Assembly: GCA_944384105.1 (NCBI GenBank)
Contig: CALWSC010000041.1
Coordinates: 2,763-66,762 of the forward strand
DNA length: 64,000 nucleotides
Source: an uncultured Lachnospiraceae bacterium
Lineage (GTDB): Bacteria > Bacillota > Clostridia > Lachnospirales > Lachnospiraceae
Direction: 5' to 3'
Of this stretch, positions 2,827 to 24,106 are shown in pieces. The first letter of the stretch is position 1. Every line of letters begins with the position of its first letter. The notes under the pieces were generated by a model. That model ran no database searches. It was not told the DNA's origin and saw nothing but the letters and a program-made list of their open reading frames with translations. The translations under genes and the position numbers were made by a program.

Positions 2827-5716
2827 ATGCCTCTGCCTCCTCACGATCTGTCAGCCGTATTACGACACGGTACGTCCTGCCCGGTTCTATTCGCACGGGC
2901 TCCTTCATATAGCATCCTCTTACCAGCCTCGTATAATTAAACCCGTGATCCAGTATCATGCGGACCTGACGTTTTTCCTTATTTCTGAGTACCTCAATAA
3001 AGTCAAAAGAAACCCAGGTATCGTTTCCTCCGCGCGGTCGCTCACCCAGGACTTCCAGGCGCAGTGTATGCATCCCTTCTGAAAGTCCCCGGACTTCTGC
3101 CATACAGACACGGTAGCGTTTCTCATATCCGCGGCTTGCCGCTGCGATATCCACCGGTTCCGGGAAACTGCTGCCTCTTTCTATGACGGTATTTCCATCG
3201 ATTTTCACGCGGTACAATCCTCCGATATGATCCGCCGGTCCATAAAGCGCCACTCCTGTCCCCTGAAAATCCACTTCCATAAAATCTCCCGCCGTGCGGC
3301 TGAGCGTTTCTGTCCCTCCCAGGTTTCCGGATGCATCCTTCATCTGCACCCACGATCCACAGCAGGTAATCTTCGGATCATTGTCATTGATAATATCTTT
3401 TGGCAGCGCTTCCTCTTGCATGCGGATGCTGCAGGCATCCTCCGGAAGAATCAAGAGCGCGCTTTTCTGTTTTCCAGTTACCGCTGCATACAGAATATCG
3501 TGCTTCATACTCTCAAAGTCTTTTTTATTTTCTCTGGGTGCCGTTCCTTTGGTCCTTCCCGGATGATCCTGCGGATAGATCTCCCAGAGCCCCCGACGGA
3601 TCCAGTGCAACTGCTGTGTTTCTCCCGGAAGTACAAAGGAAATGCCAAGCTCATCCAGTCCGCCCGGATCCAGGCCGATCTGCGCTTTTACGCGCGGAGG
3701 CATCGGACGGTACAGTTCTGTCGCCGCGTATTCGATTTCCATAGTTCCGCCGGCGGATACCGTGATGGTGAACTGTACCCGGCAGATGTCGCATTTCCCT
3801 GCCAGCAGGATTCGGATTCCATTCGGGACCCCGGACACCCGGGGCGCTTCCGGTCTCCACTTCCCCTGCTGCATTTTTGTGATCTGCAGATACGGACCGC
3901 TCTCTATCAGTTTCTCATTATTTCTCCACACGCCGCAGATCAGCCCTGTTTTTTCGGATACCGCGATTTTCAGTCCTGTCTCTTTACCTATACAGAAAAT
4001 CGTCTCCCTGGCTTTGCGGATCAGAAACGGCGCGGCGGATGTTTCCCGACATACGGTTCCCTTTTGTTTTTGCTTTTCCCATTCGCCGCGCGCCGCCAAT
4101 GTCCCTCCTGTAAACGCCATTCTCAGATGGTGATACTCCGGCTTTGGCTCATGCCGGGCGTCCAGAACTCCCCATCCGCAGTCTTTGAGCTGCTCTGAGA
4201 ATTTCCCGTCCTCATCGTATGCCGCCATCACGGAACCTCCCAGCGTCCCGGGCGTCTGATTCATCTTCTCCTGAAAACGGACAATCGTCTCGCCCCAGAA
4301 TTCATGAATTCCGTAATCCCGCAGGATCTCATCCCTGTTGTAGCATGGCAGATGCGCATAAATTTCATGCAGCACCGGCTTTTCCTCCCGCCGGGACTGA
4401 CCGGTTACATATCCGATCTCATTTTCGCTGCCGTTGGCGTGTCCGATCTCCATGTGGTCATACATCACATCCAACGGCTGCTTCCAGTCCGCATACAGCA
4501 CGCTCCACACATCGGGCTGCAGATCCTCTTTGGGAATTGTCATCGGATAGCTGAAGTTCCAGAGCTGCTCCGGGGCGAGCGCTTTTGCCATCTCAGCGCA
4601 GAGGCGAAAATTCGCGCCCCAGATGCTCTCGCTTCCCACATTCCACAGCAAAACGCTCACATAGTTTCGCGAAGCTTTCACAAGTTCCGAAAACTGTTCT
4701 GCATACATCGCCCGGCAGTCCGGCAGATTGTGAGTTGCCCGGACTGCGCGCCCGACCTGATACGCTGACATGGACTGCTCTGTGAAAAATCCCATCTCAT
4801 CGCAGAGTCTCAGCAGCTCTTCTCCAAACGGGTAATACAGACTTCTCAGGTAATTTACGCCCGCTTCCCGAAACAGTTTTAAATCCTTTCTCAGCAGTTC
4901 TTTATCATCCCCCAACGGTTCCCGATAACACAGCCCCCGCAGCTTCAGCGGGCTGTCATTCCAGAGTACCTGCTGATCGGCCGTGCGGATCCTGCGCAGG
5001 CCTATACGGCTTCTGACCTCTTCCAGAACCCTGCCGTTTTGCAGCACCTGCAGCGTCAGATCATACAGTATCGGATGCTCCGGACTCCACAGACGGGCTT
5101 CCCACACGTCCAGAGAAAGTACGGCGTCCGGTCTGTCCGGCGTGATTTCCTGCTCTTTTTGAAGTGAGACGGCGTTTCCCCCTGCATCCGTCAGCCCGGC
5201 CCGTATAGATATCCCGCTTCCGGCGCCGTCTCTTTCAGAGAATGCCGCGTCCGCCCGAATCTGTACCTGCCACGGTTCCCCGCATACCGTTTTCACCGAA
5301 TAATTTTCCAGATATATCTGCGGCAAACATACAAGAGCGATTTTTCCAAAAATCCCCGCCCGTTCAAACGGACTTAAATTTTCTGTGTCCTCCTGCAGTC
5401 TCAGACTCAGCTTTCTCCTGGCGCTGCCGTTTTTTTGCAGGCGCACCTCCCAGTCCGTAAAGCCGCCGTAATGCTCTCCTATTTTCCTGCCGTTTTCAAA
5501 CACCTCCGCGCGGCACCCGACCCGGTGCATCCGAAGCAGCAGCACACTGTGTATTTCCTCCTGTGTAAGCGCCAGATCAGCCTCATAGATCTGAACGCCG
5601 TCCTGTCCCTCGTCGCTCTGCCGCATAAATTTCAGATCCCGCACGCGGCAAACTCCATCTGATAAACATTCCGGCAGCGGCACAAGATGCCGGACATACT
5701 GCTCCCAAAGCTCCAT
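2819..5716 (-). CDS. GH2-like glycoside hydrolase with extra C-terminal beta-sandwich (CBM-like) module
   Basis: 965-aa ORF with a GH2-type sugar-binding region and a TIM-barrel segment (LKLRGLCYRE...GVNYLRSLYYP...LLWNVGSES). The last ~170 aa look like a carbohydrate-binding module. GGGAGG RBS about 7 nt upstream. Confidence 0.8.
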   Translation of the reverse strand: MELWEQYVRHLVPLPECLSDGVCRVRDLKFMRQSDEGQDGVQIYEADLALTQEEIHSVLLLRMHRVGCRAEVFENGRKIGEHYGGFTDWEVRLQKNGSARRKLSLRLQEDTENLSPFERAGIFGKIALVCLPQIYLENYSVKTVCGEPWQVQIRADAAFSERDGAGSGISIRAGLTDAGGNAVSLQKEQEITPDRPDAVLSLDVWEARLWSPEHPILYDLTLQVLQNGRVLEEVRSRIGLRRIRTADQQVLWNDSPLKLRGLCYREPLGDDKELLRKDLKLFREAGVNYLRSLYYPFGEELLRLCDEMGFFTEQSMSAYQVGRAVRATHNLPDCRAMYAEQFSELVKASRNYVSVLLWNVGSESIWGANFRLCAEMAKALAPEQLWNFSYPMTIPKEDLQPDVWSVLYADWKQPLDVMYDHMEIGHANGSENEIGYVTGQSRREEKPVLHEIYAHLPCYNRDEILRDYGIHEFWGETIVRFQEKMNQTPGTLGGSVMAAYDEDGKFSEQLKDCGWGVLDARHEPKPEYHHLRMAFTGGTLAARGEWEKQKQKGTVCRETSAAPFLIRKARETIFCIGKETGLKIAVSEKTGLICGVWRNNEKLIESGPYLQITKMQQGKWRPEAPRVSGVPNGIRILLAGKCDICRVQFTITVSAGGTMEIEYAATELYRPMPPRVKAQIGLDPGGLDELGISFVLPGETQQLHWIRRGLWEIYPQDHPGRTKGTAPRENKKDFESMKHDILYAAVTGKQKSALLILPEDACSIRMQEEALPKDIINDNDPKITCCGSWVQMKDASGNLGGTETLSRTAGDFMEVDFQGTGVALYGPADHIGGLYRVKIDGNTVIERGSSFPEPVDIAAASRGYEKRYRVCMAEVRGLSEGMHTLRLEVLGERPRGGNDTWVSFDFIEVLRNKEKRQVRMILDHGFNYTRLVRGCYMKEPVRIEPGRTYRVVIRLTDREEAEAYE

Positions 5717-5757: not shown

Positions 5758-6564
5758 TCAGCTTCCGCGTTTTTTCAGTTTTAAAATTTCTCTTGCCTCC
5801 CGGGGAGTCGCCGGCTTCAGCCCCATTGCGCGAATCAGCTCCGCCGTTTTCTCCACAATCTGGTAATTGTATCGGGCGCGGGTGTTCTCGTCCAGATAAT
5901 CACTGTCCTCAAATCCCACACGCACAATCACCGCTCCCATGGCAATTGCCGCCGCCAGGAATATCCAGTTGTCTCTTCCGAAATGTGTGACGCCCCACAG
6001 GGCATTTTCCGGCACAAAGGAGCGGAACGCGCTCAGGGCTTCCATAGTCGGCTGCATACCGCCCTTATGCCCGAATACCAGATTATATAAGATTGGTTCT
6101 GCAAAGGGCTGATCCTTCTCCACAAGCGCCATATTGTTAAGCATTCCTATGTCGAATACCTCTGTCTCCGGAAGGATTCCCCGCCGGTATACCGCGTCCG
6201 CGCAGTATCGGATATCGTCAAAGCTGTTAATATACACATTTTCCCCGAGATTTGTCGAACCGCCGTTCAGGGAAGCGCTCTCCACCTTCTCATAGTCCAG
6301 AGGATTGCAGCGCTCCCGGATATTCATATCCGATACGCCTCCGGTGGACGCCTGTACCACCACGTCGGTCTTTTCCAGGATTTTTTCAAAACACGCTTTC
6401 ATATATGTAATATCCGGCGTCAGGCTGCCATCCGGTTTTCTGCAGTGCAGATGACACATGGCGGCTCCGGCTTCAACGCTTCGTTTTACATCTTCTGCAA
6501 GTCTGTCGGCGTTTACAGGCGTGCCCGCCTGTACCGGCGCCAGCGATATAATGACTTTTCTCAT
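5758..6564 (-). CDS. BKACE/DUF849 family beta-keto acid cleavage enzyme (3-keto-5-aminohexanoate cleavage enzyme-like)
   Basis: 268-aa ORF. It has the AAMCHLHCRKPDGS HxH metal motif and a length and sequence pattern typical of DUF849. Confidence 0.8.
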   Translation of the reverse strand: MRKVIISLAPVQAGTPVNADRLAEDVKRSVEAGAAMCHLHCRKPDGSLTPDITYMKACFEKILEKTDVVVQASTGGVSDMNIRERCNPLDYEKVESASLNGGSTNLGENVYINSFDDIRYCADAVYRRGILPETEVFDIGMLNNMALVEKDQPFAEPILYNLVFGHKGGMQPTMEALSAFRSFVPENALWGVTHFGRDNWIFLAAAIAMGAVIVRVGFEDSDYLDENTRARYNYQIVEKTAELIRAMGLKPATPREAREILKLKKRGS

Positions 6565-6579
6565 AATGCACCCGTCCTT

Positions 6580-8013
6580 TCACATCAGCTCTTCTACAAT
6601 TTCACGCAGAGTCGTTTTTTCTCCCACGTTCCCCGGGAAAATAATATACGGCATTTGGGGAAATTTACTCTCCGCTCCCGTCAGCCATACCGGTATTCCC
6701 TTCTTTATCTGCCCCAGAACCAGCGCCTTTTTCACCTTCAGCGCTTTGGTTCCAACATCGCTTGAGGTAATTCCCCCCTTTGCCACAATAAATCCGGGTC
6801 TTACCTCAAAGCGTCCTATGATGCCGGTCAGCGCTTCCGAAATTTTTACGGACGCCTCCAGTATTTCATCCGGGTCTGCTCCGTCCGGCACGAGGAGCTT
6901 TCTGCTGGTATAAATAACCGCCGTCTTTCCCTCTGTTATCCATTGCTGCGCTCTGGCAGCGATTCTGTCCGCCTCGCGTTCCAATCCGTGAGGATTAAAG
7001 TAGGTATTGACGTCAAATTCCAGAAAGGCAAGCTCCTTTTGTGATTCTCTCAGGCATTCCATCTGCTGCGTACTTTTCTTTACATGGGACCCGATCAGAA
7101 CAATTCCTCCGTTCGTTTCACCCTCGCGCGCCAGCTCTTTTCCTGTCAGAAGCGGTCTGTCGGAAATATCCGCCAATACCTTTGGAAATGCCGCCGCCGT
7201 CCGGGCAAGGAAATGTTTTCCGTCTTTCAGCGCGCGGATAAACGCCGCGCAAAAGACCTTCACATCCTCGTATTCCACCGCGTTTACGATAATTTTCGCG
7301 AAACCGCGCGCAGCCATCAGCTTCCTGTAGATTCCCTCCACGTCAAAACTCCTGAGTTCCTTTATCGAAATGCAGACGCATCCGCCGGCCGGATATCTGC
7401 CGGCGGTCTTTTCCTCCACATATTCCGTCAGATCCGACGCCCGGTAACCAAACGTTTTATCCTGCGCGAACTCGGTCATTCCCGCCGGAACCAGCAGTTG
7501 ATCCTCTCTGACATAATGGACATTTTCAAAAGTATATCTTCCCCCTTCCGGGAAAAACGGACAGATCACTTCGCCGTCAAACGCGTATCCCTGAGCCAGA
7601 GAAATACCGTTTTCAAGCGCTTCTGTCTCCAGCGGATAATGGCCTCTCAGCGTGGAGTCCCCCCGGGAAATCACAAAAAAATCCTTTCCTGTTTCCCGTG
7701 CCGCACGGCTTATGTTCTCCGCGATCTGTCTGTGCGCGGTTTTCGTCTCCTCTGTGGAAAAGCTCCGGGAATTTGTCAGGACAAAGAACATCTGTCTTTC
7801 ATCTTCAAACGCCTCTCTAAGCGTTTCCGGCTCCCAGTCGGTATATACAAAAATATCATGTACCGTCTGCACTCCGGTGGGATCATCGTCCAGAACAACG
7901 ATTTTTCTGTCAAAATTTTTCAGTTCCTCTCTGAGCGTTTGCTCCGCCCGTTCGGGATCTGCCGCCGGAAACTGTTCCAGTACAGACAGCGGCTGTTTCT
8001 TCAGTCTGCTCAT
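6580..8013 (-). CDS. Four-carbon acid sugar kinase family protein (DUF1537)
   Basis: 477-aa ORF with the N-terminal IVVLDDDPTGVQTVHD motif typical of DUF1537 kinases. AAAGGAG RBS upstream. 15-nt gap to the BKACE gene. Confidence 0.8.
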   Translation of the reverse strand: MSRLKKQPLSVLEQFPAADPERAEQTLREELKNFDRKIVVLDDDPTGVQTVHDIFVYTDWEPETLREAFEDERQMFFVLTNSRSFSTEETKTAHRQIAENISRAARETGKDFFVISRGDSTLRGHYPLETEALENGISLAQGYAFDGEVICPFFPEGGRYTFENVHYVREDQLLVPAGMTEFAQDKTFGYRASDLTEYVEEKTAGRYPAGGCVCISIKELRSFDVEGIYRKLMAARGFAKIIVNAVEYEDVKVFCAAFIRALKDGKHFLARTAAAFPKVLADISDRPLLTGKELAREGETNGGIVLIGSHVKKSTQQMECLRESQKELAFLEFDVNTYFNPHGLEREADRIAARAQQWITEGKTAVIYTSRKLLVPDGADPDEILEASVKISEALTGIIGRFEVRPGFIVAKGGITSSDVGTKALKVKKALVLGQIKKGIPVWLTGAESKFPQMPYIIFPGNVGEKTTLREIVEELM

Positions 8014-8065
8014 CTTTTCTCCTTTCTGACGCGTTCACTGCGTCAATACTGGCAGTTGGATGTTT

Positions 8066-10024
8066 TCAGAGATACGCAACCGGAAACCAGATGCGCATCT
8101 CTCCAAATCCCCTGTTGTCCCACGCATAATAGGGAATAAAGCGGACTGTCTGCTTCTTCAGGCCTGCGAATTTCAGCGGCTGATAAAGCGCTTCTCTGTC
8201 GTACGCTTCTCTTCTGATACAATATTCCTCCGCTTCCAGCGCCTGAATCTTTCTTCCCGCAATCTCTGTTTCTGTCTGCCGGTACTGCGCGTTCAGATTC
8301 AGTAAAATATCATCCAGCGTCTCCACGTCAGCATCCGGCGTCTCGCAGCAGTACACCAGCGACCCATATTCGACTGCTGCCTGATTCGTATCTTCTTCTA
8401 CCATGCCGTTTGCCACAGTATAGCGCGCCTTCATCTCAAAGAAGACCTCCACCTCTGTCTTTGACGGTTCTTCCACTTCCACAGTCTGATAGGAGGAGGA
8501 CTCCTCTGCAGTCAGCTTCCTTGTCTTATGATTTACACGGATATATCCATTCTCCGCCCAGTCCGGAACACGGATGTTCAGCCGGAATCCCCGGTCAGAC
8601 TTTACATTTTCAAATGTAAACCGGATCTCCCCGTTCCACGGGTAATCCGTCTGCTGCACCAGCGTAAACTCCGCGCCGTTTTTCAGCCGGATCTGCGCCC
8701 GGTTTGCTCCGTACAGTCCCGTCCATACCGTATCCTCCGAGACCATGTACGCATACTCGCAGGACTGTGCGATGGTTCTCGCCAGATTCGGCGGACAGCA
8801 GTAGCTCAGAATATATTCCGAGCGCGTCAGCGGCCAGATCAGTTCATAGTCGAGCTTCTTTGTGCGGCGAAGCATATTTTCATAGAAAAATTTCTTCCCG
8901 TCCAGGCTGACTGCTGCCAGATTGGTATTCAGCATCATGCGCTCGATTACGTTAAAATACTCTGCCCTGGGATCGATCTGAAACATCCGGTACGCCCAGA
9001 ATACTCCTCCCAGGGACGCGCATGTCTCATTGTAGGCAGTAATATTCGGAAGCTGATATTCATAGCCGTACGCCTGATGAATCTTCTGATCCGCAAAGAA
9101 ATTTCCGTAAGGCGACGTCCCGTTATACAGCGCGCCGCACCCTCCGGTAATGTAAAGCTTCCTGTCAATGAGGTTTCTCCATACGCTGTCAAGTACCTTT
9201 CTGTATGCATCGTCGTTTTCCTCAGCGCAGAGATCCGCTACGCCCGCGTACAGATAATTCGCACGCACCGCATGGCCGATGATCTTCCTGTGCTCCTTCA
9301 GGGGGATCCTGTCCTGGTTATCGTCAAGTCCGTCCCGCACACTGTCCCTCAATACGATCGCCTGCTTTGCCAGGTTCAGATATCTCTTTTCCCCGGTCGT
9401 GCGGTACAGCTCGATCAGCCCCATATAATGCGAGGGGCACACCGCGGTCTGTACCTCTCCGGTACGCGCTGCCTCCGCATACATATTCTCAAGATAATCT
9501 GCCGCCTTTACGGCAATCCTCATAAAATTATCTTTGCCGGTCAGTCTCTGATACAGGCATGCCGCTGTAAACAGATGGCCGAAATTATATACCTCGAAGT
9601 CATTGATATCTCCCATTCTGGATATGCCGTTTCCCCGGCGTTCCCCGATAATCTGCTTTGTCGAAAGATAGCCGTCCGGCTGCTGCGCCCTGCCGATCAG
9701 ATCAATATACGCATCGATCTGTTCCAGAAGTGTTTGATTACCCGTCTTTGCCGCCGTATACATTGCGGCTTCCATCCATTTATAAAAATCTCCGTCTCCA
9801 AACACGGTTCCGTCGAAATCCCCGTCCGCCTCATTGGCGCAGATCCGGAAGTTTTCCAGTACATGGCTGATTTCTTTGCTCTCAAACATGTGCTGAAGCT
9901 GTAAAACCGTACTTTGCGCACATGTGTCAAACCGTTCCTTCCACAGTCCTTTTGTCCAGTTCACTGCCATCCCGTCCACCGGAGAGACCATGGCATACGG
10001 AGATTTTCTGGTATCTGTCAGCAT
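8066..10024 (-). CDS. Glycoside hydrolase family 127 (DUF1680; beta-L-arabinofuranosidase-like)
   Basis: 652-aa ORF carrying the NETCAS and YCCPPN motifs, which correspond to the Glu/Cys zinc and catalytic Cys cluster of HypBA1-type GH127. Confidence 0.85.
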   Translation of the reverse strand: MLTDTRKSPYAMVSPVDGMAVNWTKGLWKERFDTCAQSTVLQLQHMFESKEISHVLENFRICANEADGDFDGTVFGDGDFYKWMEAAMYTAAKTGNQTLLEQIDAYIDLIGRAQQPDGYLSTKQIIGERRGNGISRMGDINDFEVYNFGHLFTAACLYQRLTGKDNFMRIAVKAADYLENMYAEAARTGEVQTAVCPSHYMGLIELYRTTGEKRYLNLAKQAIVLRDSVRDGLDDNQDRIPLKEHRKIIGHAVRANYLYAGVADLCAEENDDAYRKVLDSVWRNLIDRKLYITGGCGALYNGTSPYGNFFADQKIHQAYGYEYQLPNITAYNETCASLGGVFWAYRMFQIDPRAEYFNVIERMMLNTNLAAVSLDGKKFFYENMLRRTKKLDYELIWPLTRSEYILSYCCPPNLARTIAQSCEYAYMVSEDTVWTGLYGANRAQIRLKNGAEFTLVQQTDYPWNGEIRFTFENVKSDRGFRLNIRVPDWAENGYIRVNHKTRKLTAEESSSYQTVEVEEPSKTEVEVFFEMKARYTVANGMVEEDTNQAAVEYGSLVYCCETPDADVETLDDILLNLNAQYRQTETEIAGRKIQALEAEEYCIRREAYDREALYQPLKFAGLKKQTVRFIPYYAWDNRGFGEMRIWFPVAYL

Positions 10025-10038
10025 TTTTTATCCTCCTG

Positions 10039-10716
10039 TCATTCTTTTATCAGTCCTTTGTCAGCCAGGGCTCTTTTCAGAGCCGCCGCGCCAAACCGCG
10101 GGCTTGAGAGTACCGGCTTATGATATTCCTTTTCCAATTCGCTTTCCACATATGCCATCGATCCCTGCGCAAGCAGAATCACATCCACCTGATCCGCTAT
10201 CTGTCCTGCCTTATCGCTCAGCACCTGTCTGAACTGCTCCTGGTCCAGTCCGAAAGCTCCGTCCACCAGCCCGTCCACCAGCGTAACTCTTGCTCCCATC
10301 TCTCTTGCCACTCTCAGAATTGTATTCTTCGTGGGCTCAAGCGTGGTCGGCAGTGTCGCAAGGACTCCGATTTTCTTTCCAAGCCTTACCGCTTCCCTGC
10401 ACATCTCCTCATCAATACGCACAATCGGCACGCCTGTGAATTTTCCGATGCTCATCGCCGCATCCGCCGCCTCTCCTACAGAAGAACAGCAATTTAAAAT
10501 CACATCTGCACCGTCGGCAGTCGCCTGCATAAACATTGCTGTCAGCCGCGCTGCCGCCGGTGCGGTCACATATCCCGCCTCACGGACTTCCGCCAGAATC
10601 GACGGATCTTCATAATTCATCAATTCCACTGTTTTTCCAAGATTCCTGTAGATTTCTGTATTTACCGTCTCGATCAGTTCCGGTGTCGTACTTGTATATA
10701 CAATTCCCGCCTTCAT
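10039..10716 (-). CDS. Asp/Glu/hydantoin racemase superfamily protein (single conserved Cys)
   Basis: The track ORF 10039..10836 is trimmed to the ATG at 10714-10716 (MKAGIVYTST...). This start has a GGAGG RBS and forms an ATGA overlap with the GH42 stop. Motifs LNCCSSVGE and LLAQGSMAY. Confidence 0.7.
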   Translation of the reverse strand: MKAGIVYTSTTPELIETVNTEIYRNLGKTVELMNYEDPSILAEVREAGYVTAPAAARLTAMFMQATADGADVILNCCSSVGEAADAAMSIGKFTGVPIVRIDEEMCREAVRLGKKIGVLATLPTTLEPTKNTILRVAREMGARVTLVDGLVDGAFGLDQEQFRQVLSDKAGQIADQVDVILLAQGSMAYVESELEKEYHKPVLSSPRFGAAALKRALADKGLIKE

Positions 10717-12812
10717 CCCATTACCTCCATTTCCGGAATCGCCGCCATACCCGAGCCGGCAGCTTTTCCTGTATTCTTTCTCTCGAGAAAAATTCTTACA
10801 TCCATTGGTTCCACGAAGTTTTCCTGTGCGGGACACGATCCCGCCAGAAAGTCTTCCCCGGACACCTGCGGGATTTTTACCCTCTCTTTGCCGTAATTCA
10901 GCCAGAAGTGATAACGGTATTCTCCGTTTTCCCTACAGTGATATTCCACTTCCTGCGGGATTTCAGATACAGGAATCCCGGCTTCTGTAAGCGCCCGGGC
11001 GATCAATTTTTCCATTGCTTTGTCATCCAGGCGCGCTCCTGTATACCACGCCGCTCCTCCGTTGTTTCCGCATTTTTTTCTCGTAACGGCGGCGCCTCCG
11101 GCATAATAGTCGTCTGTATACGTTCCCAGAATCTCCGCGTCCTGTACCCGCAGCACCTCTGCAAAATCGCGGACTTCTCCGATGCTTCCGTCCGCAAATC
11201 TTATGCCATTTCTGTCTGATGGATACAGCGTGTCCACTTCCTCGCTGTATGCGCCGAACAGTTCCTTCAGTCCCGCGCCCGGGAACCCGCCCAGATAGCA
11301 CAGCGTATTCTGATCGACATAACCTGCCAGATACGTCGCAAAAAGCTGTCCGCCGCCGCGCACATATGCGCGCAGGCGTTCTGCCGTATCCTCTTCTATC
11401 AAATACATCATGGGCGCAAACACAGCTCCGTATCCGCCCATATCATCTCTGCGCGAGATGATATCAGCTTCCACGCCGAGCCGGGCAAGTATCCGGTAAA
11501 AGCTCAGACATGTTTTTTCATACTGCTTTTTCTGCTGACTAAGTCCCTTCATATCATCGATCGCCCAGCGGTTATCCCAGTCAAACAGAATCGCCGCCTG
11601 CGCCCGCACAATGCTTTTTGTCACCGGCTGAAGCTTTTTGAGGATCTGTCCCGTCTGCTCCACTTCGCGGAAAATTCTCGTATCATCTCTTCCCAGATGA
11701 TCCACTACAGCTCCGTGATACTGCTCAAAAGAACCGCGGCTCTTGCGCCACTGAAAATACTGCACGCTGTCAGATCCGCAGGCAATCGCCTGAACTGCCG
11801 CCAGCTTATGCATCCCGGGGCGCTTCTGCTTGTTAAACTCATGCCAGTTTACAGCTCCGGGAACGCTCTCCATCAAAAGGAACGGGCGGTCTTTGCACAT
11901 CCCGCGCATCACGCTGTGATCAAACGCATTCTCTATACAGGTATCATACAGGCTCTCATAATCATTATGATATCTCGGGTAACTGTCCCACGAGATCACA
12001 TCCAGTTCCTTCGCCATCCTACGGTAATCCAGGCCCGGATACAGCTTCATAAAATTCGTCGTCACCGGAATCTGCGGCGTCAGGGAACGGAATACTTCAA
12101 TTTCAGACTTCATATAGTCCGTCATGTTCCACGTAGTAAACCGCTTCCACTCCAGATTCAGGCCCATAATACTGTTCTCTCCGTTGGCAAACGGAGGTTC
12201 AATCTGATCAAATCTCTGATAGCGGTGACTCCAGAAGGTGGTCCACCACGCCTGGTTCAGAGTTTCGATATCTCCATGAAACTTATCGCTTAGATACTCC
12301 TGGAACTTCTTCCGGCACAGCGGACAGAAGCAGGCTCCTCCCAGTTCATTGGAAATATGCCACAGTATCAGACCGGGATGTTTTCCGAAATGCTCCGCCA
12401 GCCGGACGTTTATCTCCCTTACCTTCCGGCGGAAATCAGGCGATGTCATACAGTGATTATGCCGAACGCCGTGATGGCGTCTCTGCCCTCTTTCATCCGT
12501 CCTCAGCGCCTCCGGATATTTCTCATCCAGCCACGCCGGCTTCGCTCCGGACGGTGTGGCCAGAATCGTCCGGATTCCATTTTCGTACAGCCGGTCCATA
12601 ATGTCTTTCAGCCATTCCAAATGATAGTCGCCCTCCTGCGGCTCCAGAACGGACCAGGAGAATACGCCGAGCGTCGCGACATTTACTCCCGCCTTTTTCA
12701 TCATACGGATATCTTCTTTCAGAATATCCGGGCGGTCCAGCCATTGCTCCGGATTATAATCTCCTCCATGAAGCAATTCCTGATTGGCAAGCGCAATACG
12801 TTGTCTTTCCAT
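10713..12812 (-). CDS. GH42 beta-galactosidase family enzyme
   Basis: 699-aa ORF; N-terminus HGGDYNPEQW...GVNVATLGVFSWSVLEPQEGDY is the classic GH42 pattern. Confidence 0.9.
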   Translation of the reverse strand: MERQRIALANQELLHGGDYNPEQWLDRPDILKEDIRMMKKAGVNVATLGVFSWSVLEPQEGDYHLEWLKDIMDRLYENGIRTILATPSGAKPAWLDEKYPEALRTDERGQRRHHGVRHNHCMTSPDFRRKVREINVRLAEHFGKHPGLILWHISNELGGACFCPLCRKKFQEYLSDKFHGDIETLNQAWWTTFWSHRYQRFDQIEPPFANGENSIMGLNLEWKRFTTWNMTDYMKSEIEVFRSLTPQIPVTTNFMKLYPGLDYRRMAKELDVISWDSYPRYHNDYESLYDTCIENAFDHSVMRGMCKDRPFLLMESVPGAVNWHEFNKQKRPGMHKLAAVQAIACGSDSVQYFQWRKSRGSFEQYHGAVVDHLGRDDTRIFREVEQTGQILKKLQPVTKSIVRAQAAILFDWDNRWAIDDMKGLSQQKKQYEKTCLSFYRILARLGVEADIISRRDDMGGYGAVFAPMMYLIEEDTAERLRAYVRGGGQLFATYLAGYVDQNTLCYLGGFPGAGLKELFGAYSEEVDTLYPSDRNGIRFADGSIGEVRDFAEVLRVQDAEILGTYTDDYYAGGAAVTRKKCGNNGGAAWYTGARLDDKAMEKLIARALTEAGIPVSEIPQEVEYHCRENGEYRYHFWLNYGKERVKIPQVSGEDFLAGSCPAQENFVEPMDVRIFLERKNTGKAAGSGMAAIPEMEVMG

Positions 12813-12828: not shown

Positions 12829-14862
12829 TCAGGCTTCCTGCCGGCTGCCCGGCGTTCCTTCTGCGCAGACCATTACCGCCCGCGGCGCCATTTGCACGCG
12901 CCCGGTCACTGTGCGGCCTGTCAGAAGATCTGTCAGATGTTCTTCTCCAAAATCTATCCACGCTTCCGCTCTGTTGTGATTGATCACAAACACGGTGTTC
13001 TCTTTTTCTTTGACTCTTACGGTAATCTCCACCCCGTCCTGCGCCGGATACAGCGAAGTCACGCCCTGCAGGCTGCAGATTTTTGAGATAAATTCACGGA
13101 GAAATTCTTCATCCGGCTCTGTGCCGATATAGTATGCGGCGCCCTTCCCATAATGATTTTCCGTCAGGCACGGCATGCCCTGATAGAAATCCTTCCCATA
13201 TACGGCCAGGCTCTTTGCTCCCTCTGTGTGCAGCAGGTCGCACAGGAATCCGCAGGCGTAACTGTCTTTGCTCAGGCCAGCTTCCTCTTTCATGCACATG
13301 ATGTTCGTCTCTTCCGGCCGCAGCGCGTCAGTCTCCTCCACGCGTATCCCCAGAATGTTCTTTAAAGGTCCGGGATATTCCCCATAAATACATCGGTCGT
13401 TTTCATCCGCGATTCCGGACATGACAGTCGCCAGCAGCGTACCGCCGTTTCTGACAAACACTTCCAGCTTCTTTGCAATGTTGTCCTTTATCATATAGAG
13501 CATCGGAGCAACCACCACGCGGTACTGGTCCAGGTTCTCGTCAAACCGGACGATATCCACCGGTATATTCTGCTCGAAAAATGCCCGGTAGTATTTCGAC
13601 ACAGTCTTTAAATAGTCCATATCCCGGCTCGGTCCGCTTGAGAGTTCCAGCGCCCACCAGTTATTCCAGTCAAACAGGATCGCTGCCTGTGCCCGGATCC
13701 GTCCGCCGGGTATCCGGTTTCCCAGTTTTTTCATCTCAGCCCCGAGCTGGCTCATCTCCCTGAAAACCCTCGTATCCTCTCTGCCGGAGTGGCTGATCAG
13801 AGCCCCATGGAACTTCTCCTGTCCCGCAATAGACTGGCGCATCTGAAAGAACAGGCAGGTATCCGCCCCATGTGCAATCGCCTGATAGCTCAGCTCGCGC
13901 ACTTCCTGCGGACGCTTCAGCTTATTATACGGCTGCCAGTTCTGCTGATTCGGGGACTGTTCGGTAAGCCAGTACGACTGTCCATGCCGCAGACCGCGCA
14001 TAATCTCATGCTTCATCGCTATGAAATACGGCGGATCTGTGGGTGCCGGATAATTATCCCATCCTACCATATCCAGATGCTCCGCCATAACTCTCTGATC
14101 CAGCTTTCTGATATATCCCGACATATTTGTCATCACCGGGATCTTGGGATTATACCGCCGAAGCACTGAAGCCTCATTCTCAAAGCACTCCGCAGTGGAA
14201 TCCGTCAGAAACCGCATGTAGTCGAGCTGCGCGACAGGATAAAACCGGTAATCGTCATTGAGTTCCGTGGGCATCATCACGTCGTCAAAGCTATAAACGG
14301 TGCGTCCCCAAAAGGACGTATGCCATTTTTCATTAAAATTTTCCACGGTTTTATACCGTCTCTTCAGCCAGAGCCTGAACTTTGCCTGACAGGTCGGGCA
14401 ATAGCAGGAGGTTCCATACTCGTTTGATACATGCCATGCCGCCAGCGCCGGATGATGCGCGTAGCGCTTTGCCATCTCCTCTGCGATTGCCGCCGCCCTC
14501 TCCCGGTATTTCAGGCTGTTCACGCAAAAGAAAACTCTCATGCCGTGCGTGCGCTTTCTCCCCGCTATATCGACAGGAAGCACCTCGGGATACTTTCTGG
14601 ACAGCCATGCGGGCTGTGCGGTTGTCGGCGTGGCAAGACAGATATGTATCCCATGCGACCAGATCTTATCGATGATCCGGTCCAGCCAGCCGAAATCATA
14701 CTCTCCTTCCGACGGTTCCAGCTTTGCCCAGGAAAATACCGGAAGCACTACCAGATTTACGCCCGCCTTCTCAAAGAGTTCCATATCTCTGTCAATCGTA
14801 GCGTCATCCCACTGATCCGGGTTGTAATCTCCTCCGAAATAGATTCTGTCAGCAACTTTCAT
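12829..14862 (-). CDS. GH42 beta-galactosidase family enzyme (paralog)
   Basis: 678-aa ORF; FGGDYNPDQW...GVNLVVLPVFSWAKLEPSEGEY. ATG at 14862 (the track uses the GTG at 14865). It overlaps the upstream gene's 3' end. Confidence 0.9.
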   Translation of the reverse strand: MKVADRIYFGGDYNPDQWDDATIDRDMELFEKAGVNLVVLPVFSWAKLEPSEGEYDFGWLDRIIDKIWSHGIHICLATPTTAQPAWLSRKYPEVLPVDIAGRKRTHGMRVFFCVNSLKYRERAAAIAEEMAKRYAHHPALAAWHVSNEYGTSCYCPTCQAKFRLWLKRRYKTVENFNEKWHTSFWGRTVYSFDDVMMPTELNDDYRFYPVAQLDYMRFLTDSTAECFENEASVLRRYNPKIPVMTNMSGYIRKLDQRVMAEHLDMVGWDNYPAPTDPPYFIAMKHEIMRGLRHGQSYWLTEQSPNQQNWQPYNKLKRPQEVRELSYQAIAHGADTCLFFQMRQSIAGQEKFHGALISHSGREDTRVFREMSQLGAEMKKLGNRIPGGRIRAQAAILFDWNNWWALELSSGPSRDMDYLKTVSKYYRAFFEQNIPVDIVRFDENLDQYRVVVAPMLYMIKDNIAKKLEVFVRNGGTLLATVMSGIADENDRCIYGEYPGPLKNILGIRVEETDALRPEETNIMCMKEEAGLSKDSYACGFLCDLLHTEGAKSLAVYGKDFYQGMPCLTENHYGKGAAYYIGTEPDEEFLREFISKICSLQGVTSLYPAQDGVEITVRVKEKENTVFVINHNRAEAWIDFGEEHLTDLLTGRTVTGRVQMAPRAVMVCAEGTPGSRQEA

Positions 14863-20042: not shown

Positions 20043-20146
20043 CTCTGTCTTTTCACCTCTGCTTTCTATAATAGTAAGGTCCGGGAAAGGCATTGAGACC
20101 AGAGGCTCTTTTTTTTGCCTTCCCCAGACCTTTTGCGAAGTCTTAC

Positions 20147-21949
20147 TTATTCTGTTGCAGTTCCCTCTACGGTGTTCTCATTGAGCATCTCAATAATTCC
20201 GTCAAAATCTGTATCGGTCTGGCTCTTAATATCCTCTACATAGGACTCCCATACGGAATCGTCATTGATATCCATCTGTCCGGTGATAAACTGTGTGGCA
20301 AGCTCTCTCGCCCTCTTATCACACACGCCCTCATAGAGAAGCTCTGCTCTCTGACCGGACTCTTCCGGAGTCAGATATGTCACAGGCGGGCGGTCATACG
20401 GAGATACGGAATCCTCTCCGCCGTTCTTATCAGACTCTACCCAGTATTTGCCTTCATAATAGCCCTGCTCTTCATTCCACCACGGCTCCGGTTTTGCCGC
20501 TACGTCGAGCATCGCGTTAAAGTCAATCGGGTTAAACGGAACGCCCGGACGGCATACGGATGATGCTGTCAGTCCATAGTTGCCGGACTGAACTGCCGGA
20601 TCCTCCGCTCCTGTAATATCCTCGGAGTACGTCTTGGTTCCGTCCTCTTCTGTCGTATAAGTCTCTCCTTCGACGCCCCAGTTCATAAGATTTACCATCT
20701 CATCTGAGTACTGGTAATCGATCATTGCTACCGCATATTCCGGGTTCTCAACGGCTGCGCTGATATAAATACCCATTGAGGAGGACAGTGATTTGCCAGC
20801 CTGTCTGGAGCCCCACTTCCACGGGGTACCGTACTGCTCATCTTCTGGAAGGTAAGCAAGTCCCCACTGCATACTTTCATCCGTCACCGCGTCATTCCAT
20901 CCAGATACGCTGCCTGCCCACAGAGTCGGGCAGATCGCTCCGACGCCTGTCGTTGCCTTCGTCGTCGCTGCGTTCGTGTCCGCTGTCGCGAACTCCGGAT
21001 CAATATATCCTGCTTCGTACAGGCTGTTTACGTACTTGAGCATTTCGCGGTAGTTATCCTCAATCGGACCGAACCTCCAGGTGCCCTCGTCATAATACAG
21101 GCAGTCCCAGGTATGGAAAATTCCCACAAATCCTCTGACCAAAGAATAATCCTTCGTGCTGTTCATGATCGGATACTGAACATTCAGTTCTCCCGCGTCA
21201 ATCTTCTCTTTCATGGTCTTGCACAGTTCGGTAAATTCATCCAGCGTTGTCGGAGGATCAATGCCGATCTGCTTTAACAGGTCGAAGCGGTAAGCAAAAG
21301 CAGTAAAGGACTGCGCGCCCTGGATATTATCCGGGTTATAAAAGCCATCCATGAAATAATACATGGAACCGTCTTCCAGCTTTGCAAAATCTTCACCTCC
21401 AGCTGTGGACTTCATGTATTCCGGATAGTATACCATGTAATCCATATAGTCGCTCAGGTTCAGCAATACGCCGTCCTCGCCGTACTCATTCACCGCGCTG
21501 CCTTTTGTGACTGTCGCGATGTCCGGGATTTCTCCGGACTGAAGGACTACCAGCTCATTGGTAGAATAATCCGTAGAGTTCGTTCTGGACCACTCGATGT
21601 CCAGTTTGCAGCCCAGATAATGCTCCATCGCCTCCTGCCAGAGCTTCTGAATCTGCGTGTCCTCCGAAGAGAGCTGATAATCTGCAATGCTGACCTTCAG
21701 CTTCAGCGTATCGTCATCCAGCTCTGGAAGGTCGATGCCGTTTTCTTCCGCAGTTGCAAATTCCCCGACGTCCATCGTCAGCTCCGGAACGGATTCCGGG
21801 TCAAACTTGGAATTTTCCTGCGCCGCCGCAGGCGTGGATTCTGCTTCTGCCGCATCGCTGCCGCTGTTTCCGCCGCATCCTGCCAGAATGCCCGCTGACA
21901 TTGCCGCCGCCAGGACGGCTGCCGTAATTTTCTGTGTTTTCTTTCTCAT
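20147..21949 (-). CDS. Extracellular solute-binding lipoprotein of carbohydrate ABC importer (large LplA/YtcQ-like type)
   Basis: 600-aa ORF with a signal peptide and lipobox (ILAGCGGNSG). Adjacent to two permease genes. Confidence 0.85.
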   Translation of the reverse strand: MRKKTQKITAAVLAAAMSAGILAGCGGNSGSDAAEAESTPAAAQENSKFDPESVPELTMDVGEFATAEENGIDLPELDDDTLKLKVSIADYQLSSEDTQIQKLWQEAMEHYLGCKLDIEWSRTNSTDYSTNELVVLQSGEIPDIATVTKGSAVNEYGEDGVLLNLSDYMDYMVYYPEYMKSTAGGEDFAKLEDGSMYYFMDGFYNPDNIQGAQSFTAFAYRFDLLKQIGIDPPTTLDEFTELCKTMKEKIDAGELNVQYPIMNSTKDYSLVRGFVGIFHTWDCLYYDEGTWRFGPIEDNYREMLKYVNSLYEAGYIDPEFATADTNAATTKATTGVGAICPTLWAGSVSGWNDAVTDESMQWGLAYLPEDEQYGTPWKWGSRQAGKSLSSSMGIYISAAVENPEYAVAMIDYQYSDEMVNLMNWGVEGETYTTEEDGTKTYSEDITGAEDPAVQSGNYGLTASSVCRPGVPFNPIDFNAMLDVAAKPEPWWNEEQGYYEGKYWVESDKNGGEDSVSPYDRPPVTYLTPEESGQRAELLYEGVCDKRARELATQFITGQMDINDDSVWESYVEDIKSQTDTDFDGIIEMLNENTVEGTATE

Positions 21950-23896: not shown

Positions 23897-24106
23897 TACG
23901 GTACCTCCTTGCTTTTTATATAATTTTAACAAATTCCATTCAGAATAAAATGGAGCGGATCTGTATGTTTTATGCAACTTTCTTCACTGTTACCTGACAA
24001 TTCTCCATAGGAAATCGTAGATTTTTCCATATTGTGATTTTTGACTTTCATGTAAAATAAGCATGAATCCTTATAGAAGCAATGAAAATCAAGCGAGGCT
24101 CTGTTT

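Follow-up and report, generated by a model that had tools for sequence, protein, structure and literature searches.

The window, by which we mean the whole 64 kb stretch of DNA analysed, carries at positions 5758-10716 of its minus strand four genes encoding a BKACE enzyme, a DUF1537 kinase, a GH127 and an Asp/Glu-racemase-fold protein (RACE), all within a run of glycoside hydrolase (GH) genes (Table 1). The intergenic gaps are 41, 15, 52 and 14 nt, in addition to a 4-nt overlap between the RACE ATG and the stop of the upstream GH42 gene; the RACE length given here takes this ATG as its start. The flanking GH2, GH42, GH106-like, GH78, solute-binding protein and permease genes are all co-directional with the cassette, and no convincing intergenic terminator was found inside the gene run. 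Open reading frames and Pfam matches agree with the initial annotation, which had described a co-directional and tightly packed set of BKACE, kinase, GH127 and racemase-fold genes in a GH run, and every family it named was confirmed by Pfam. It had also stated that the usual partners of DUF1537 pathways are missing from the window, and Pfam scans of all large ORFs together with tblastn likewise detected no PdxA, Aldolase_II, F_bP_aldolase, RuBisCO-like or OtnI-type genes in the 64 kb. The same histidine kinase/response regulator pair flanks the cassette at four other loci (L006, L008, L175 and L176). At locus L001 the GH2 neighbours are present at full length.

Table 1. Genes of the cassette and its surroundings, with positions in the window.
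Feature	Position	Strand	Details
GH2, incomplete (exits window start)	1-2826	-	Pfam Glyco_hydro_2, Glyco_hydro_2_C; 942-codon open frame
GH2, complete	2819-5716	-	Pfam Glyco_hydro_2, Glyco_hydro_2_C
BKACE/DUF849 Zn TIM-barrel enzyme	5758-6564	-	268 aa; motif MCHLHCR
DUF1537 kinase	6580-8013	-	477 aa; motif VLDDDPTGVQ; Pfam SBD_N + NBD_C
GH127	8066-10024	-	652 aa; three Pfam GH127 domains
RACE (Asp/Glu-racemase-fold protein)	10039-10716	-	225 aa; Pfam Asp_Glu_race
GH42	10713-12812	-	Pfam
GH42	12829-14865	-	Pfam
GH106-like	14849-17458	-	Pfam; rhamnosidase matches, NCBIfam
GH78 alpha-L-rhamnosidase	17463-20093	-	Pfam; rhamnosidase matches, NCBIfam
ABC importer lipoprotein solute-binding protein	20147-21949	-	lipobox LAGC in N-terminus; weak carbohydrate-SBP match
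ABC permease	22018-22923	-	BPD_transp_1
ABC permease	22937-23977	-	BPD_transp_1
His_kinase/HAMP sensor of divergent two-component regulator	24107-25909	+	Pfam
AraC-type response regulator of divergent two-component regulator	25946-26881	+	Pfam

GH127 matched the catalytic, middle and C-terminal Pfam domains of its family with 311, 59 and 65 bits. Its sole NCBIfam match was AcerHdlse (NF049879), over the full length and with 755 bits; because this lies under the equivalog cut-off of 950, we infer its specificity. In a PDB search 5mqo came first at 537 bits, the next GH127 structure scoring 327, and the alignment places residue 2 of GH127 on residue 25 of the 5mqo chain. We take 5mqo to be BT1003; its PDB title reads 'Non-reducing end beta-L-arabinofuranosidase'. 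Residues 298-320 of GH127 form a 5mqo-type insertion adjoining the catalytic region, which is present in 52 of the 53 cassette GH127s and is not found in HypBA1, 4qjy or 6ex6 (two of these three carry beta-L-arabinofuranosidase titles). Residues E333, C335, C409 and C410 are kept in all 53, and from the HypBA1 literature we take these Glu/Cys and Cys-Cys residues to be the Zn and nucleophile set. At the loop that holds the acid/base Glu322 of HypBA1, HMMER and MAFFT alignments disagree on its replacement in GH127. No signal peptide was found, so GH127 is predicted to be cytoplasmic. Overall, we assign GH127 by its sequence to the BT1003 (aceric acid hydrolase) type, in keeping with aceric acid having been one candidate named by the initial annotation. 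To our knowledge, aceric acid hydrolase activity has been characterised in a single enzyme so far, and no acidic sugar other than aceric acid has been reported among GH127 products.

The kinase covers both DUF1537 domains at full length (SBD_N, PF07005, 164 bits; NBD_C, PF17042, 117 bits). It scored far below the curated NCBIfam cut-offs for D-threonate kinase (DtnK, 53 bits, cut-off 450) and 3-oxo-tetronate kinase (OtnK, 38 bits, cut-off 350) and gave no match to the OiaK model, against which one relative reached 18 bits (cut-off 700). PDB searches with the kinase, profile included, returned no DUF1537 match at E<1e-3. These scores place it in what appears to be an uncharacterised DUF1537 clade. 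Its closest relatives (50-55% identity) are found in clusters with a dehydrogenase (DH), an F_bP_aldolase-type protein and GntP, whereas the window kinase has neither LtnD nor an F_bP_aldolase-type 2-OtnC beside its gene. The window group and the relatives from LtnD/F_bP_aldolase-type clusters have 116 of 148 invariant positions in common and differ consistently at only 3 residues, suggesting closely similar active sites. In a neighbour-joining tree, one clade holds the kinases from GH127-linked cassettes, and those from loci with the BKACE-kinase-RACE trio and no GH gene fall outside it. All characterised DUF1537 kinases that we know of act on a terminal primary hydroxyl.

BKACE (PF05853, 225 bits) likewise remained far under the cut-offs of the curated equivalogs, reaching 213 bits for Kce (cut-off 382) and 153 and 133 bits for two others (cut-offs 430 and 350), and is predicted to lie outside the curated functional groups. 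The initial annotation had suggested placing the kinase and BKACE relative to characterised clades; both scored as outsiders. The best NCBIfam matches of BKACE are true acetyl-CoA-dependent BKACEs. Aligned on 2Y7D, its H38, H40 and E219 occupy Zn-ligand positions, and E135, R215, D220 and S73 correspond to E143, R226, D231 and S82, with roles as reportedly described by Bellinzoni et al. 2011. H38, H40, E135, R215, E219 and D220 are unchanged in 63 of 63 homologues, and at S73 one homologue has Thr where the other 62 keep Ser. The complete canonical catalytic set, Zn and enolate apparatus, is retained. PMC4922564 (Table 7) records non-canonical, decarboxylating members of DUF849.

RACE matched Pfam Asp_Glu_race with 68 bits. 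Its AF2 model (pLDDT 91) was searched with Foldseek, and allantoin/hydantoin racemases, arylmalonate decarboxylase (AMDase) and Glu racemase came out on top at 12-19% identity, the racemases with probability 1.0 and TM-scores of 0.6-0.77. The model thus predicts a two-domain Asp/Glu/hydantoin racemase fold. One catalytic Cys is present (C77, in N-x-C-S-S-V-G-E), the second-Cys site being Ser186 (Q-G-S-M); residues C77, S78, S79, E82, Q184, G185, S186 and M187 are unchanged in 72 of 72 distinct homologues. The paired catalytic Cys of two-base racemisation was accordingly found neither in RACE nor in these homologues. The Ser at the second site counts against a true racemase, and Cys/Ser instead of Cys/Cys fits a one-base isomerisation; we propose that RACE is a proton-transfer isomerase. 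We know of no aldose-ketose isomerase in the Asp/Glu racemase superfamily, which counts against such a role.

At least 13 species-level genomes share the order RACE-GH127-kinase-BKACE, each time with other flanks, and it persists to about 56% kinase identity. Cultured carriers of the cassette include Blautia faecis DFI.3.66 and Blautia glucerasea MSK.18.94. The order is also repeated across metagenomes, where locus counts overstate independence because many are near-duplicates of a few species. Such repetition across many genomes and metagenomes argues that the arrangement is not due to chance. In a species-dereplicated genome scan, all kinases of at least 56% identity adjoin BKACE, and they also adjoin RACE and GH127 except at L015, where the locus is cut short, and L017, which has a transporter instead. 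In the reciprocal test with RACE (43 loci, each with at least 7 kb downstream), we found the kinase in 43, BKACE in 40 and GH127 in 33. At the three loci without BKACE, the sequence ends right after the kinase. RACE, kinase and BKACE are obligate mutual partners, and mostly also partners of this GH127.

GH127 and DUF1537 also occur as single polypeptides of 1101-1328 aa, which make up 33 protein clusters at 90% identity with more than 1000 member sequences and reach down to 57% identity; the ones inspected have RACE on one side and BKACE on the other. The synteny, which the initial annotation had suggested measuring, is tight and specifically with GH127, including this recurrent fusion. It had described a trio with GH127 lying between its members; the gene order stands, but the functional unit comprises four genes, GH127 included. 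Cassette flanks recurrently encode the GH140 apiosidase family and GH78, as well as an isomerase, a split transketolase and an FGGY kinase. No apiose-specific NCBIfam match was obtained in the transketolase module, which may represent an apiose route on the basis of GH140 co-location and of a route reportedly described by Carter et al. 2018.

Trio loci without a GH encode TRAP or BASS/PanS-like organic-acid transporters and GntR/FCD regulators, and at L076 GH127 occurs together with a TRAP system, which points to an acidic substrate. An F_bP_aldolase-type (2-OtnC-like) protein is present at some GH-less loci, and no dehydrogenase was found at trio loci. The GH-less trio may handle a related but different acid, because its kinases fall outside the GH127-linked clade and its BKACEs are just 41-48% identical to that of the window.

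L-aceric acid (AceA; 3-C-carboxy-5-deoxy-L-xylose) is a branched acidic sugar of side chain B of rhamnogalacturonan-II (RG-II) and has no primary hydroxyl. The idea of the initial annotation, in which the neighbouring GHs free an uncommon plant sugar, acidic or branched, for the trio to process, gains support from the GH127 type, the synteny, the gene fusion and the uncharacterised clades, and each computational test suggested with that idea came out in its favour at the sequence level. We propose that the cassette is an AceA catabolic module and consider AceA its probable substrate; the step-by-step enzyme roles that follow are tentative and rather doubtful. The gut Lachnospiraceae host, which is related closely to Candidatus Egerieimonas, would take up a side-chain-B fragment via the neighbouring ABC system, and the GH78, GH106-like, GH42 and GH2 enzymes would trim it in the cytoplasm before GH127 frees AceA. 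RACE would then shift a proton and convert AceA to the 2-ketose HOCH2-CO-C(OH)(COO-)-CH(OH)-CH3; isomerisation would have to come first because AceA lacks the terminal primary hydroxyl that DUF1537 kinases need. This ketose would be a beta-keto acid that differs from 3-oxo-isoapionate as its C-methyl homologue and can formally be seen as an aldol adduct of 3-oxo-tetronate and acetaldehyde. The kinase would act on the newly formed primary hydroxyl, and the Zn-dependent BKACE would take the beta-keto acid and cleave a C-C bond via its usual enolate, most likely by retro-aldol release of acetaldehyde, or alternatively by decarboxylation; these two steps could occur in either order. Finally, oxo-tetronate phosphate would be decarboxylated to DHAP, for which the 2-OtnC-like protein of some GH-less loci could serve, giving AceA + ATP -> DHAP + acetaldehyde + CO2 + ADP. 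No final-step decarboxylase or aldolase is encoded in the window, which counts against the route. The GH140 and GH78 flanks, with the isomerase, split transketolase and FGGY kinase, match the AceA-Rha-Api trisaccharide, 10-50% of which is secreted by wild-type B. thetaiotaomicron growing on RG-II (bioRxiv 10.64898/2026.03.13.711244).

A module that is real and coupled to GH127 could serve another sugar, be it a furanosidic acid, a branched sugar, or L-arabinofuranose in a modified form and acidified later. We regard this as unlikely: the AcerHdlse score below cut-off is compatible with it, but GH127 is far nearer to 5mqo than to the other solved GH127s and has the insertion in common with it. 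With a single aceric acid hydrolase characterised, the clade may include other specificities, and the GH42, GH2 and GH106-like neighbours in the window equally suit arabinogalactan or RG-I; the recurrent GH140 and GH78 flanks, however, agree with AceA-Rha-Api, and we know of no report of any other acidic GH127 product. Since the pathway has no oxidoreductase, yet has a DUF1537 kinase, a BKACE and TRAP transporters, the freed sugar must be an acid already.

With the same substrate, BKACE might instead work canonically, converting a beta-keto acid with an alpha-proton and acetyl-CoA to an acyl-CoA and an acetoacetate derivative, in which case AceA use would be linked to acetyl-CoA/butyrate metabolism and not to DHAP. 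The AceA ketose has no alpha-proton and its quaternary alpha-carbon makes this chemistry impossible, and cleavage of an oxo-tetronate would presumably yield glycolyl- or phosphoglycolyl-CoA and 2-hydroxyacetoacetate with no obvious fate. We consider canonical action fairly improbable, even if the top NCBIfam matches are acetyl-CoA-dependent enzymes and many of the hosts are Lachnospiraceae; the 2-OtnC-like decarboxylase at some GH-less loci indicates a DHAP end point. The retention of the canonical catalytic residues examined, with one Ser-to-Thr exception at S73 among the 63 homologues, favours canonical action and, together with the quaternary alpha-carbon of the proposed ketose, counts against our route.

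It is very unlikely that the trio is a variant L-threonate/D-erythronate pathway, in which the kinase would phosphorylate 2- or 3-oxo-tetronate with RACE and BKACE as accessory proteins, GH127 merely sharing a plant-carbon operon. The architecture of the clusters that hold the 50-55% kinase relatives equals the three-step threonate route (PMC12540250) and the kinases differ consistently at so few residues, but trio loci have no dehydrogenase to oxidise threonate or erythronate, the 33 fusion clusters would be puzzling unless GH127 and kinase were directly linked in metabolism, and RACE and BKACE join the kinase in every complete locus. That the genes are unconnected neighbours packed together by chance is hardly credible: nothing favours it except the usual warning against reading function from adjacency, and the conserved order with changing flanks, the reciprocal co-occurrence and the recurrent fusion all speak against it.

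Among known systems, BT1003 of Bacteroides thetaiotaomicron is reportedly (Ndeh et al. 2017) a GH127 aceric acid hydrolase, an activity that frees L-aceric acid from AceA-alpha-1,3-Rha. It is the top PDB and NCBIfam match of the window GH127 and has the loop insertion, Glu/Cys and Cys-Cys residues in common with it; BT1003 is periplasmic and part of a Bacteroidota PUL, whereas the window enzyme is predicted to be cytoplasmic, belongs to a Gram-positive host with an ABC-importer locus and has relatives fused to the kinase. BT1003 is called aceric acid hydrolase in PMC13501991.

The proposed AceA route follows the redox-free logic of the isomerase-kinase-aldolase pathways for the 6-deoxyhexoses L-fucose (FucIKA) and L-rhamnose (RhaABD), from aldose to ketose, C1 phosphorylation and C-C cleavage to DHAP and a short aldehyde, but would use three unrelated enzyme folds and require an additional decarboxylation. 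The D-apionate route, which serves the other branched sugar of RG-II, reportedly (Carter et al. 2018) runs through ApnO and OiaK (DUF1537) and then OiaC, OiaT or OiaX. It likewise employs a DUF1537 kinase on a branched 3-oxo acid sugar from RG-II, but OiaK is not orthologous to the window kinase, the keto acid arises by an oxidoisomerase acting on an aldonate and not by the redox-free isomerisation of an aldose-acid proposed here, and a RuBisCO-like protein acts downstream where the cassette has BKACE. The enzymes of this route are named in bioRxiv 10.64898/2026.03.13.711244 and PMC12994016.

The passages of PMC12540250 and PMC12994016 that draw on Zhang 2016 and Guo 2024 give a three-step (LtnD, 2-OtnK, 2-OtnC) and a four-step (LtnD, OtnI, 3-OtnK, 3-OtnC) L-threonate/D-erythronate pathway, the characterised 2-OtnK being the Arthrobacter sp. 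ZBG10 enzyme. Clusters of the 50-55% kinase relatives are likened to the three-step route by Pfam architecture, and some GH-less trio loci keep its F_bP_aldolase-type protein; in place of dehydrogenase or OtnI, the cassette has RACE and BKACE, plus its coupling to a glycoside hydrolase. From the absent partners, the initial annotation expected the chemistry to depart from that of known DUF1537 pathways. It may not differ wholly, and downstream the AceA route may converge with them on oxo-tetronate phosphate and DHAP, because the kinase relatives show the three-step L-threonate cluster architecture.

Kce (3-keto-5-aminohexanoate cleavage enzyme) and the BKACE family have reportedly been described by Bellinzoni 2011 and Bastard 2014. 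The window BKACE has their fold, Zn ligands and catalytic Glu/Asp/Arg/Ser, but sits with a kinase in sugar catabolism, and its predicted substrate lacks the alpha-proton required by the canonical mechanism. AMDase, a single-Cys member of the Asp/Glu racemase superfamily, has the same fold as RACE, and in both one catalytic Cys is retained and the other substituted. RACE differs from it by the low identity and by its sugar-catabolic partner genes; RACE retains C77, the Cys of the N-terminal domain, and has Ser in place of the second one, an arrangement that is reversed in natural AMDase.

We came across no AceA catabolic pathway in the literature searched. If our proposal is correct, the cassette would equip its hosts for the degradation of this rare branched pectin sugar.

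The four genes of the cassette are packed within a run of glycoside hydrolase (GH) genes transcribed in the same direction, with gaps of 41, 15, 52 and 14 nt between the packed genes. They encode an Asp/Glu-racemase-fold protein (RACE), a GH127 enzyme, a DUF1537 acid-sugar kinase and a DUF849-family Zn enzyme (BKACE), and all four families gave high-scoring Pfam matches. The arrangement and family assignments of the initial annotation were thus borne out by ORFs, gaps and HMM searches. Two GH2 genes lie downstream, one of them running past the window start. Upstream, also in the same direction, are two GH42 genes, a GH106-like gene, GH78, a solute-binding lipoprotein (lipobox LAGC) and two ABC permeases, and beyond the permeases a divergent sensor kinase and an AraC-type response regulator. 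The annotation's remark that the usual partners of DUF1537 pathways (PdxA, Aldolase_II, RuBisCO-like and OtnI-type proteins) are missing held throughout the 64-kb window, in which no F_bP_aldolase, TRAP, transketolase or GH140 genes were found either. NCBIfam gave no equivalog specific to rhamnogalacturonan-II (RG-II) for the other GHs of the window, and a promoter/terminator scan across the operon returned matches no better than chance level. The 90%-identity cluster of RACE includes a member annotated as Candidatus Egerieimonas faecigallinarum, a Lachnospiraceae.

Coordinates of the cassette genes in the window and of related features in other loci compared with it (L-numbers; P-numbers are proteins from searches)
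Feature	Position	Strand	Remarks
BKACE	5758-6564	minus	268 aa, motif MCHLHCR
DUF1537 kinase	6580-8013	minus	477 aa, motif DDDPTG
GH127	8066-10024	minus	652 aa
RACE	10039-10716	minus	225 aa; ATG shares 4 nt with stop of upstream GH42
GH127-kinase fusions	L095:10690-14028, L120:10784-14152, L019:7991-11389, L111:10692-14012, L105:10717-14058		proteins P0261-P0293
Loci of 50-55%-identity kinase relatives	L021-L089, e.g. L081:9071-12782, L038:9015-13797, L046:7513-11434		
Isomerase-like/transketolase/FGGY module	L008:1114-5787; also L012, L013, L144-L154, L168-L173		directly upstream of cassette

Further genes of the window lie past the regulator genes. A group at 28489-33075 (plus strand) comprises a SASA-family acetylesterase, a GH29 alpha-L-fucosidase, a GDSL esterase and, at 31152-32405 (plus), a URO-D/MtaA-CmuA-like methyltransferase-family protein. 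Because RG-II chain B bears O-acetyl groups and 2-O-methyl-fucose, these genes could serve deacetylation, defucosylation and possibly O-demethylation. The response-regulator gene shares its 3' end with a TTG-initiated ORF of 569 aa at 26673-28382 (plus), which had no Pfam or NCBIfam match; its start is miscalled, or it encodes an uncharacterised protein between regulator and esterase. The 33-64 kb part of the window holds cell-envelope, choline-related and purL genes. Its cell-envelope cluster (33131-57473) contains a Polysacc_synt flippase, DUF2142, DUF6077, LicD, two GT2 genes, a 1060-aa protein with choline-binding repeats, Cna_B and a metallo-beta-lactamase domain, a BCCT transporter and a choline kinase/nucleotidyltransferase fusion. 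With these genes, the Lachnospiraceae may make a wall polymer that bears choline.

L-aceric acid (AceA), the branched acidic sugar of side chain B, is a signature rare sugar of RG-II and is freed by BT1003, a GH127 aceric acid hydrolase of Bacteroides thetaiotaomicron. The sole NCBIfam match of the window GH127 was the aceric acid hydrolase model (full-length, 755 bits, under the conservative cut-off of 950). Its best PDB match by far was 5mqo (537 bits; next GH127, 327 bits), which we take to be BT1003 and whose entry is titled 'Non-reducing end beta-L-arabinofuranosidase'. The window GH127 and 5mqo have in common an insertion in a loop (residues about 298-320), which 52 of the 53 distinct cassette GH127s carry and which HypBA1, the Geobacillus enzyme (4qjy) and 6ex6 lack. 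Residues E333, C335, C409 and C410, presumably the GH127 Zn and nucleophile set, are conserved. By similarity under the curated cut-off, we infer that the enzyme is of the aceric-acid type. The alignment starts at its residue 2, opposite residue 25 of the 5mqo chain. A signal peptide is therefore missing from the window GH127, which is expected to work in the cytoplasm. We also considered a loss of the acid/base Glu. HMMER pairs Q317 with E322 of HypBA1 and MAFFT sets the loop otherwise, and we claim only the shared insertion.

We scanned genomes with the kinase as query (one genome per species), followed by tblastn and family clustering. Exact cassette copies were found on several gut metagenome contigs, and the order RACE-GH127-kinase-BKACE was kept, with differing flanks, in homologues at 62-75% kinase identity. 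In the species-dereplicated scan every kinase of at least 56% identity adjoined BKACE; these kinases also adjoined RACE and GH127, with the exceptions of L015 (a short contig) and L017 (a transporter-type locus). The linkage of the trio (RACE, kinase and BKACE) to GH genes, on which the initial reading depended, extends to related genomes, the GH127-containing order being present in Blautia, Mediterraneibacter, further Lachnospiraceae and further Clostridia, at least 13 species-level genomes in all. Their kinases formed one clade in a neighbour-joining tree, a crude distance tree without support values that was used only for grouping GH127-linked kinases. In the reciprocal test, starting from RACE, we collected 43 loci on metagenome contigs with at least 7 kb downstream. 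The kinase was present in all 43, BKACE in 40 (the other three end just past the kinase) and GH127 in 33. Since a few species account for many of these loci as near-duplicates, the counts show consistency and not 43 independent events.

Many relatives carry GH127 and kinase joined in a single ORF of 1101-1328 aa, with variable linkers of 10-30 residues. The protein search yielded 33 fusion clusters at 90% identity, reaching down to 57% identity; their members number over 1000 and stem from four independent data sources. The fused gene lay between RACE and BKACE in all three fusion contexts examined. Unlike these relatives, the window has GH127 and kinase as separate genes with a 52-nt gap. We know of no other fusion of a glycoside hydrolase with a sugar kinase. 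As the fusion is upheld over wide divergence, it is strong evidence that the kinase pathway consumes the sugar freed by this GH127, or a close derivative of it.

The kinase and BKACE proved to lie outside the characterised clades, in line with the initial annotation. Against NCBIfam equivalogs the kinase scored 53 bits for D-threonate kinase (cut-off 450) and 38 bits for 3-oxo-tetronate kinase (cut-off 350), and BKACE 213 bits for Kce (cut-off 382). The kinase did not match the NCBIfam OiaK model, and no solved DUF1537 structure was found for it in the PDB by single sequence or profile. Most kinases at 50-55% identity occur together with an NAD_binding_2/NAD_binding_11 dehydrogenase and a GntP permease, often also an F_bP_aldolase-family protein, in Bacillus, Paenibacillus, Planococcus, Clostridium, Enterococcus and Lachnospiraceae. 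The dehydrogenase is GarR/LtnD-like and scores above the NCBIfam cut-off as 2-hydroxy-3-oxopropionate reductase; the kinases themselves have no NCBIfam name. These clusters have the same Pfam architecture as the three-step L-threonate pathway of LtnD, 2-OtnK and 2-OtnC, as outlined for Guo et al. 2024 in PMC12540250. Among 148 positions invariant in GH127-linked kinases, 116 hold the same residue in at least 90% of the 50-55% relatives, and consistent differences were seen at only three positions (S84/G and S86/T in the N-S-R-S-F-S motif, and A235/V). For this reason the kinase substrate is probably an oxo-tetronate-like acid or a close analogue.

RACE has no sequence relative in the PDB, where only a chance match to a designed TIM-barrel protein was returned (E 0.079). 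Its AF2 model is confident (pLDDT 91) and resembles allantoin and hydantoin racemases, arylmalonate decarboxylase and glutamate racemases, at only 12-19% identity. One catalytic Cys is kept (C77) and the second position is Ser186 in 72 of 72 homologues, a pattern that speaks against two-base racemisation and is consistent with a 1,2-proton shift by one base. For BKACE, decarboxylase rather than BKACE activity has been recorded for some DUF849 members (PMC4922564 Table 7), and the NetSyn BKACE preprint does not mention a kinase or racemase context. The Kce Zn ligands and the Glu/Asp/Arg/Ser set are kept across 63 BKACE homologues, with one Ser-to-Thr exchange (S73). BKACE should therefore still hold a beta-keto acid on Zn and stabilise an enolate.

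All evidence considered here is computational, and steps were assigned by chemical reasoning. AceA, OHC-CH(OH)-C(OH)(COO-)-CH(OH)-CH3, has no primary hydroxyl. To our knowledge, a terminal primary hydroxyl is the site used by every characterised DUF1537 kinase (those of Zhang 2016, Carter 2018 and Thiaville 2016). The same site is given in PMC10971088. No oxidoreductase is part of the four-gene module. Without a redox step, a primary hydroxyl could arise only by aldose-to-ketose isomerisation, giving HOCH2-CO-C(OH)(COO-)-CH(OH)-CH3. RACE, with its Cys/Ser pair, could be the sugar-acid isomerase, working by the one-base shift. Alternatively, RACE could be an OtnI-like 3-oxo/2-oxo-tetronate isomerase, taking the proton alpha to the carboxylate. 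The ketose of AceA would be a beta-keto acid, the BKACE substrate class, as well as a C-methyl homologue of 3-oxo-isoapionate (the OiaK substrate) and formally the aldol adduct of 3-oxo-tetronate enolate and acetaldehyde. Its alpha-carbon would be quaternary, so that no enolate could form by deprotonation; on the BKACE Zn, decarboxylation or a retro-aldol reaction that expels acetaldehyde might generate it, in place of acetyl-CoA-dependent cleavage. Kinase and BKACE, in either order, would lead through oxo-tetronate 4-phosphate or 5-deoxypentulose 1-phosphate to DHAP, a last step in which the F_bP_aldolase-type protein of some loci without GH genes could act. The net reaction would be AceA + ATP -> DHAP + acetaldehyde + CO2 + ADP.

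Two variants of this scheme were dropped. The kinase active site is like that of tetronate-type relatives, which makes an obligatory position of BKACE after the kinase no more likely than the reverse order. CoA thiolysis or hydrolysis of the ketose would leave an unstabilised carbanion or yield phosphoglycolate. We tentatively put forward, as a real possibility rather than a probable one, that the cassette is the first L-aceric acid catabolic pathway, with a RACE isomerase, a retro-aldol or decarboxylative BKACE and a GH fused in nature to the kinase of its own product, all of them unprecedented uses of familiar folds.

Three contexts of the cassette recur. In one, GH140 (Pfam 'Apiosidase' family) precedes the cassette and GH78 follows; in another, the cassette and GH78 come after a gene for an isomerase-like protein of 466 aa, a split transketolase and an FGGY kinase resembling glycerol kinases. 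The third, that of the window, has a GH106-like gene and two GH42 before the cassette and GH78 or GH2 after it. The isomerase-like protein (466-469 aa) gave a weak match of 94 bits to the sulfoquinovose isomerase SftI and has no Pfam match on record; the rest of the transketolase module gave only generic transketolase and GlpK matches in NCBIfam, and no apiose-specific NCBIfam model matched. From co-location and from work reportedly by Carter et al. in 2018, we infer that this module is an apiose route. The cassette with GH78 and the GH140 or transketolase module matches, residue for residue, L-AceA-alpha-1,3-L-Rha-alpha-1,3-D-Api (Rha, rhamnose; Api, apiose). Wild-type B. thetaiotaomicron grown on RG-II secretes 10-50% of exactly this trisaccharide (2026 preprint, 10.64898/2026.03.13.711244). 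The larger GH set of the window would fit a longer side-chain-B fragment with rhamnose, arabinopyranose and galactose.

Loci with the trio and no GH gene show 64-70% (RACE), 41-48% (BKACE) and 50-54% (kinase) identity. They carry a GntR/FCD regulator and usually a TRAP or BASS/PanS-like transporter, some with an F_bP_aldolase-family protein, and are found in [Clostridium] clostridioforme, Pelosinus, a Fusobacterium MAG and soil or digester MAGs, among others. A Blautia MAG (L076) has GH127 together with TRAP. Such transporters and regulators suggest that the substrate is a free organic acid, and the GH-less trio may act on an acid related to AceA.

Several neighbouring genes were observed in addition. 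In some GH-less loci (L086:5989-6963, L083, L126, L143, L167) a BASS-family transporter replaces TRAP; it comes closest to PanS (278 bits, cut-off 400), the ketopantoate/pantoate transporter, whose cargo is small branched hydroxy acids. At L174:5876-6916, next to a cassette of the fused type, are a 114-aa MIF/tautomerase-family protein and a 226-aa protein lacking annotation; a keto-enol tautomerase would suit an enol product of decarboxylation or retro-aldol cleavage. A GH63/MGH1-like (trehalase-fold) glycosidase (L006:21250-, L008:21271-, L175:13524-, L176:23224-) recurs among several lineages; it lies downstream of the cassette, just behind the ABC transporter. Distant RACE-like proteins (37-39% identity; L026:8451-9119, L031:9338-10000 and L082, near 4362) lie directly upstream of BKACE-less kinases, and the RACE-kinase partnership therefore reaches beyond the aceric-acid-type cassette. 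The two checked (L026 and L031) have the same C-S-S and Q-G-S-M motifs, and L026, from Youngiibacter, also has a dehydrogenase, F_bP_aldolase and GntP.

The fucose/rhamnose isomerase-kinase-aldolase routes and the DUF1537-based tetronate/apionate routes follow a similar logic, but the cassette differs from both in its partner enzymes, its coupling to a glycosidase and its substrate, and these are new. We found no description of aceric acid catabolism, or of DUF1537 linked to aceric acid, in 7.7 million open-access papers and bioRxiv. The cassette offers a concrete four-gene hypothesis for a sugar without a described catabolic route in the searchable literature, and one that is directly testable because cultured Blautia (Blautia faecis and Blautia glucerasea) carry it. 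If true, it would provide functions for clades of DUF1537, DUF849/BKACE and Asp/Glu-racemase-fold proteins that are large, highly conserved and uncharacterised. Abundant Lachnospiraceae carry genes fitting all three residues of AceA-Rha-Api, and gut Lachnospiraceae would then live by cross-feeding on the trisaccharide that Bacteroides secretes during RG-II degradation.
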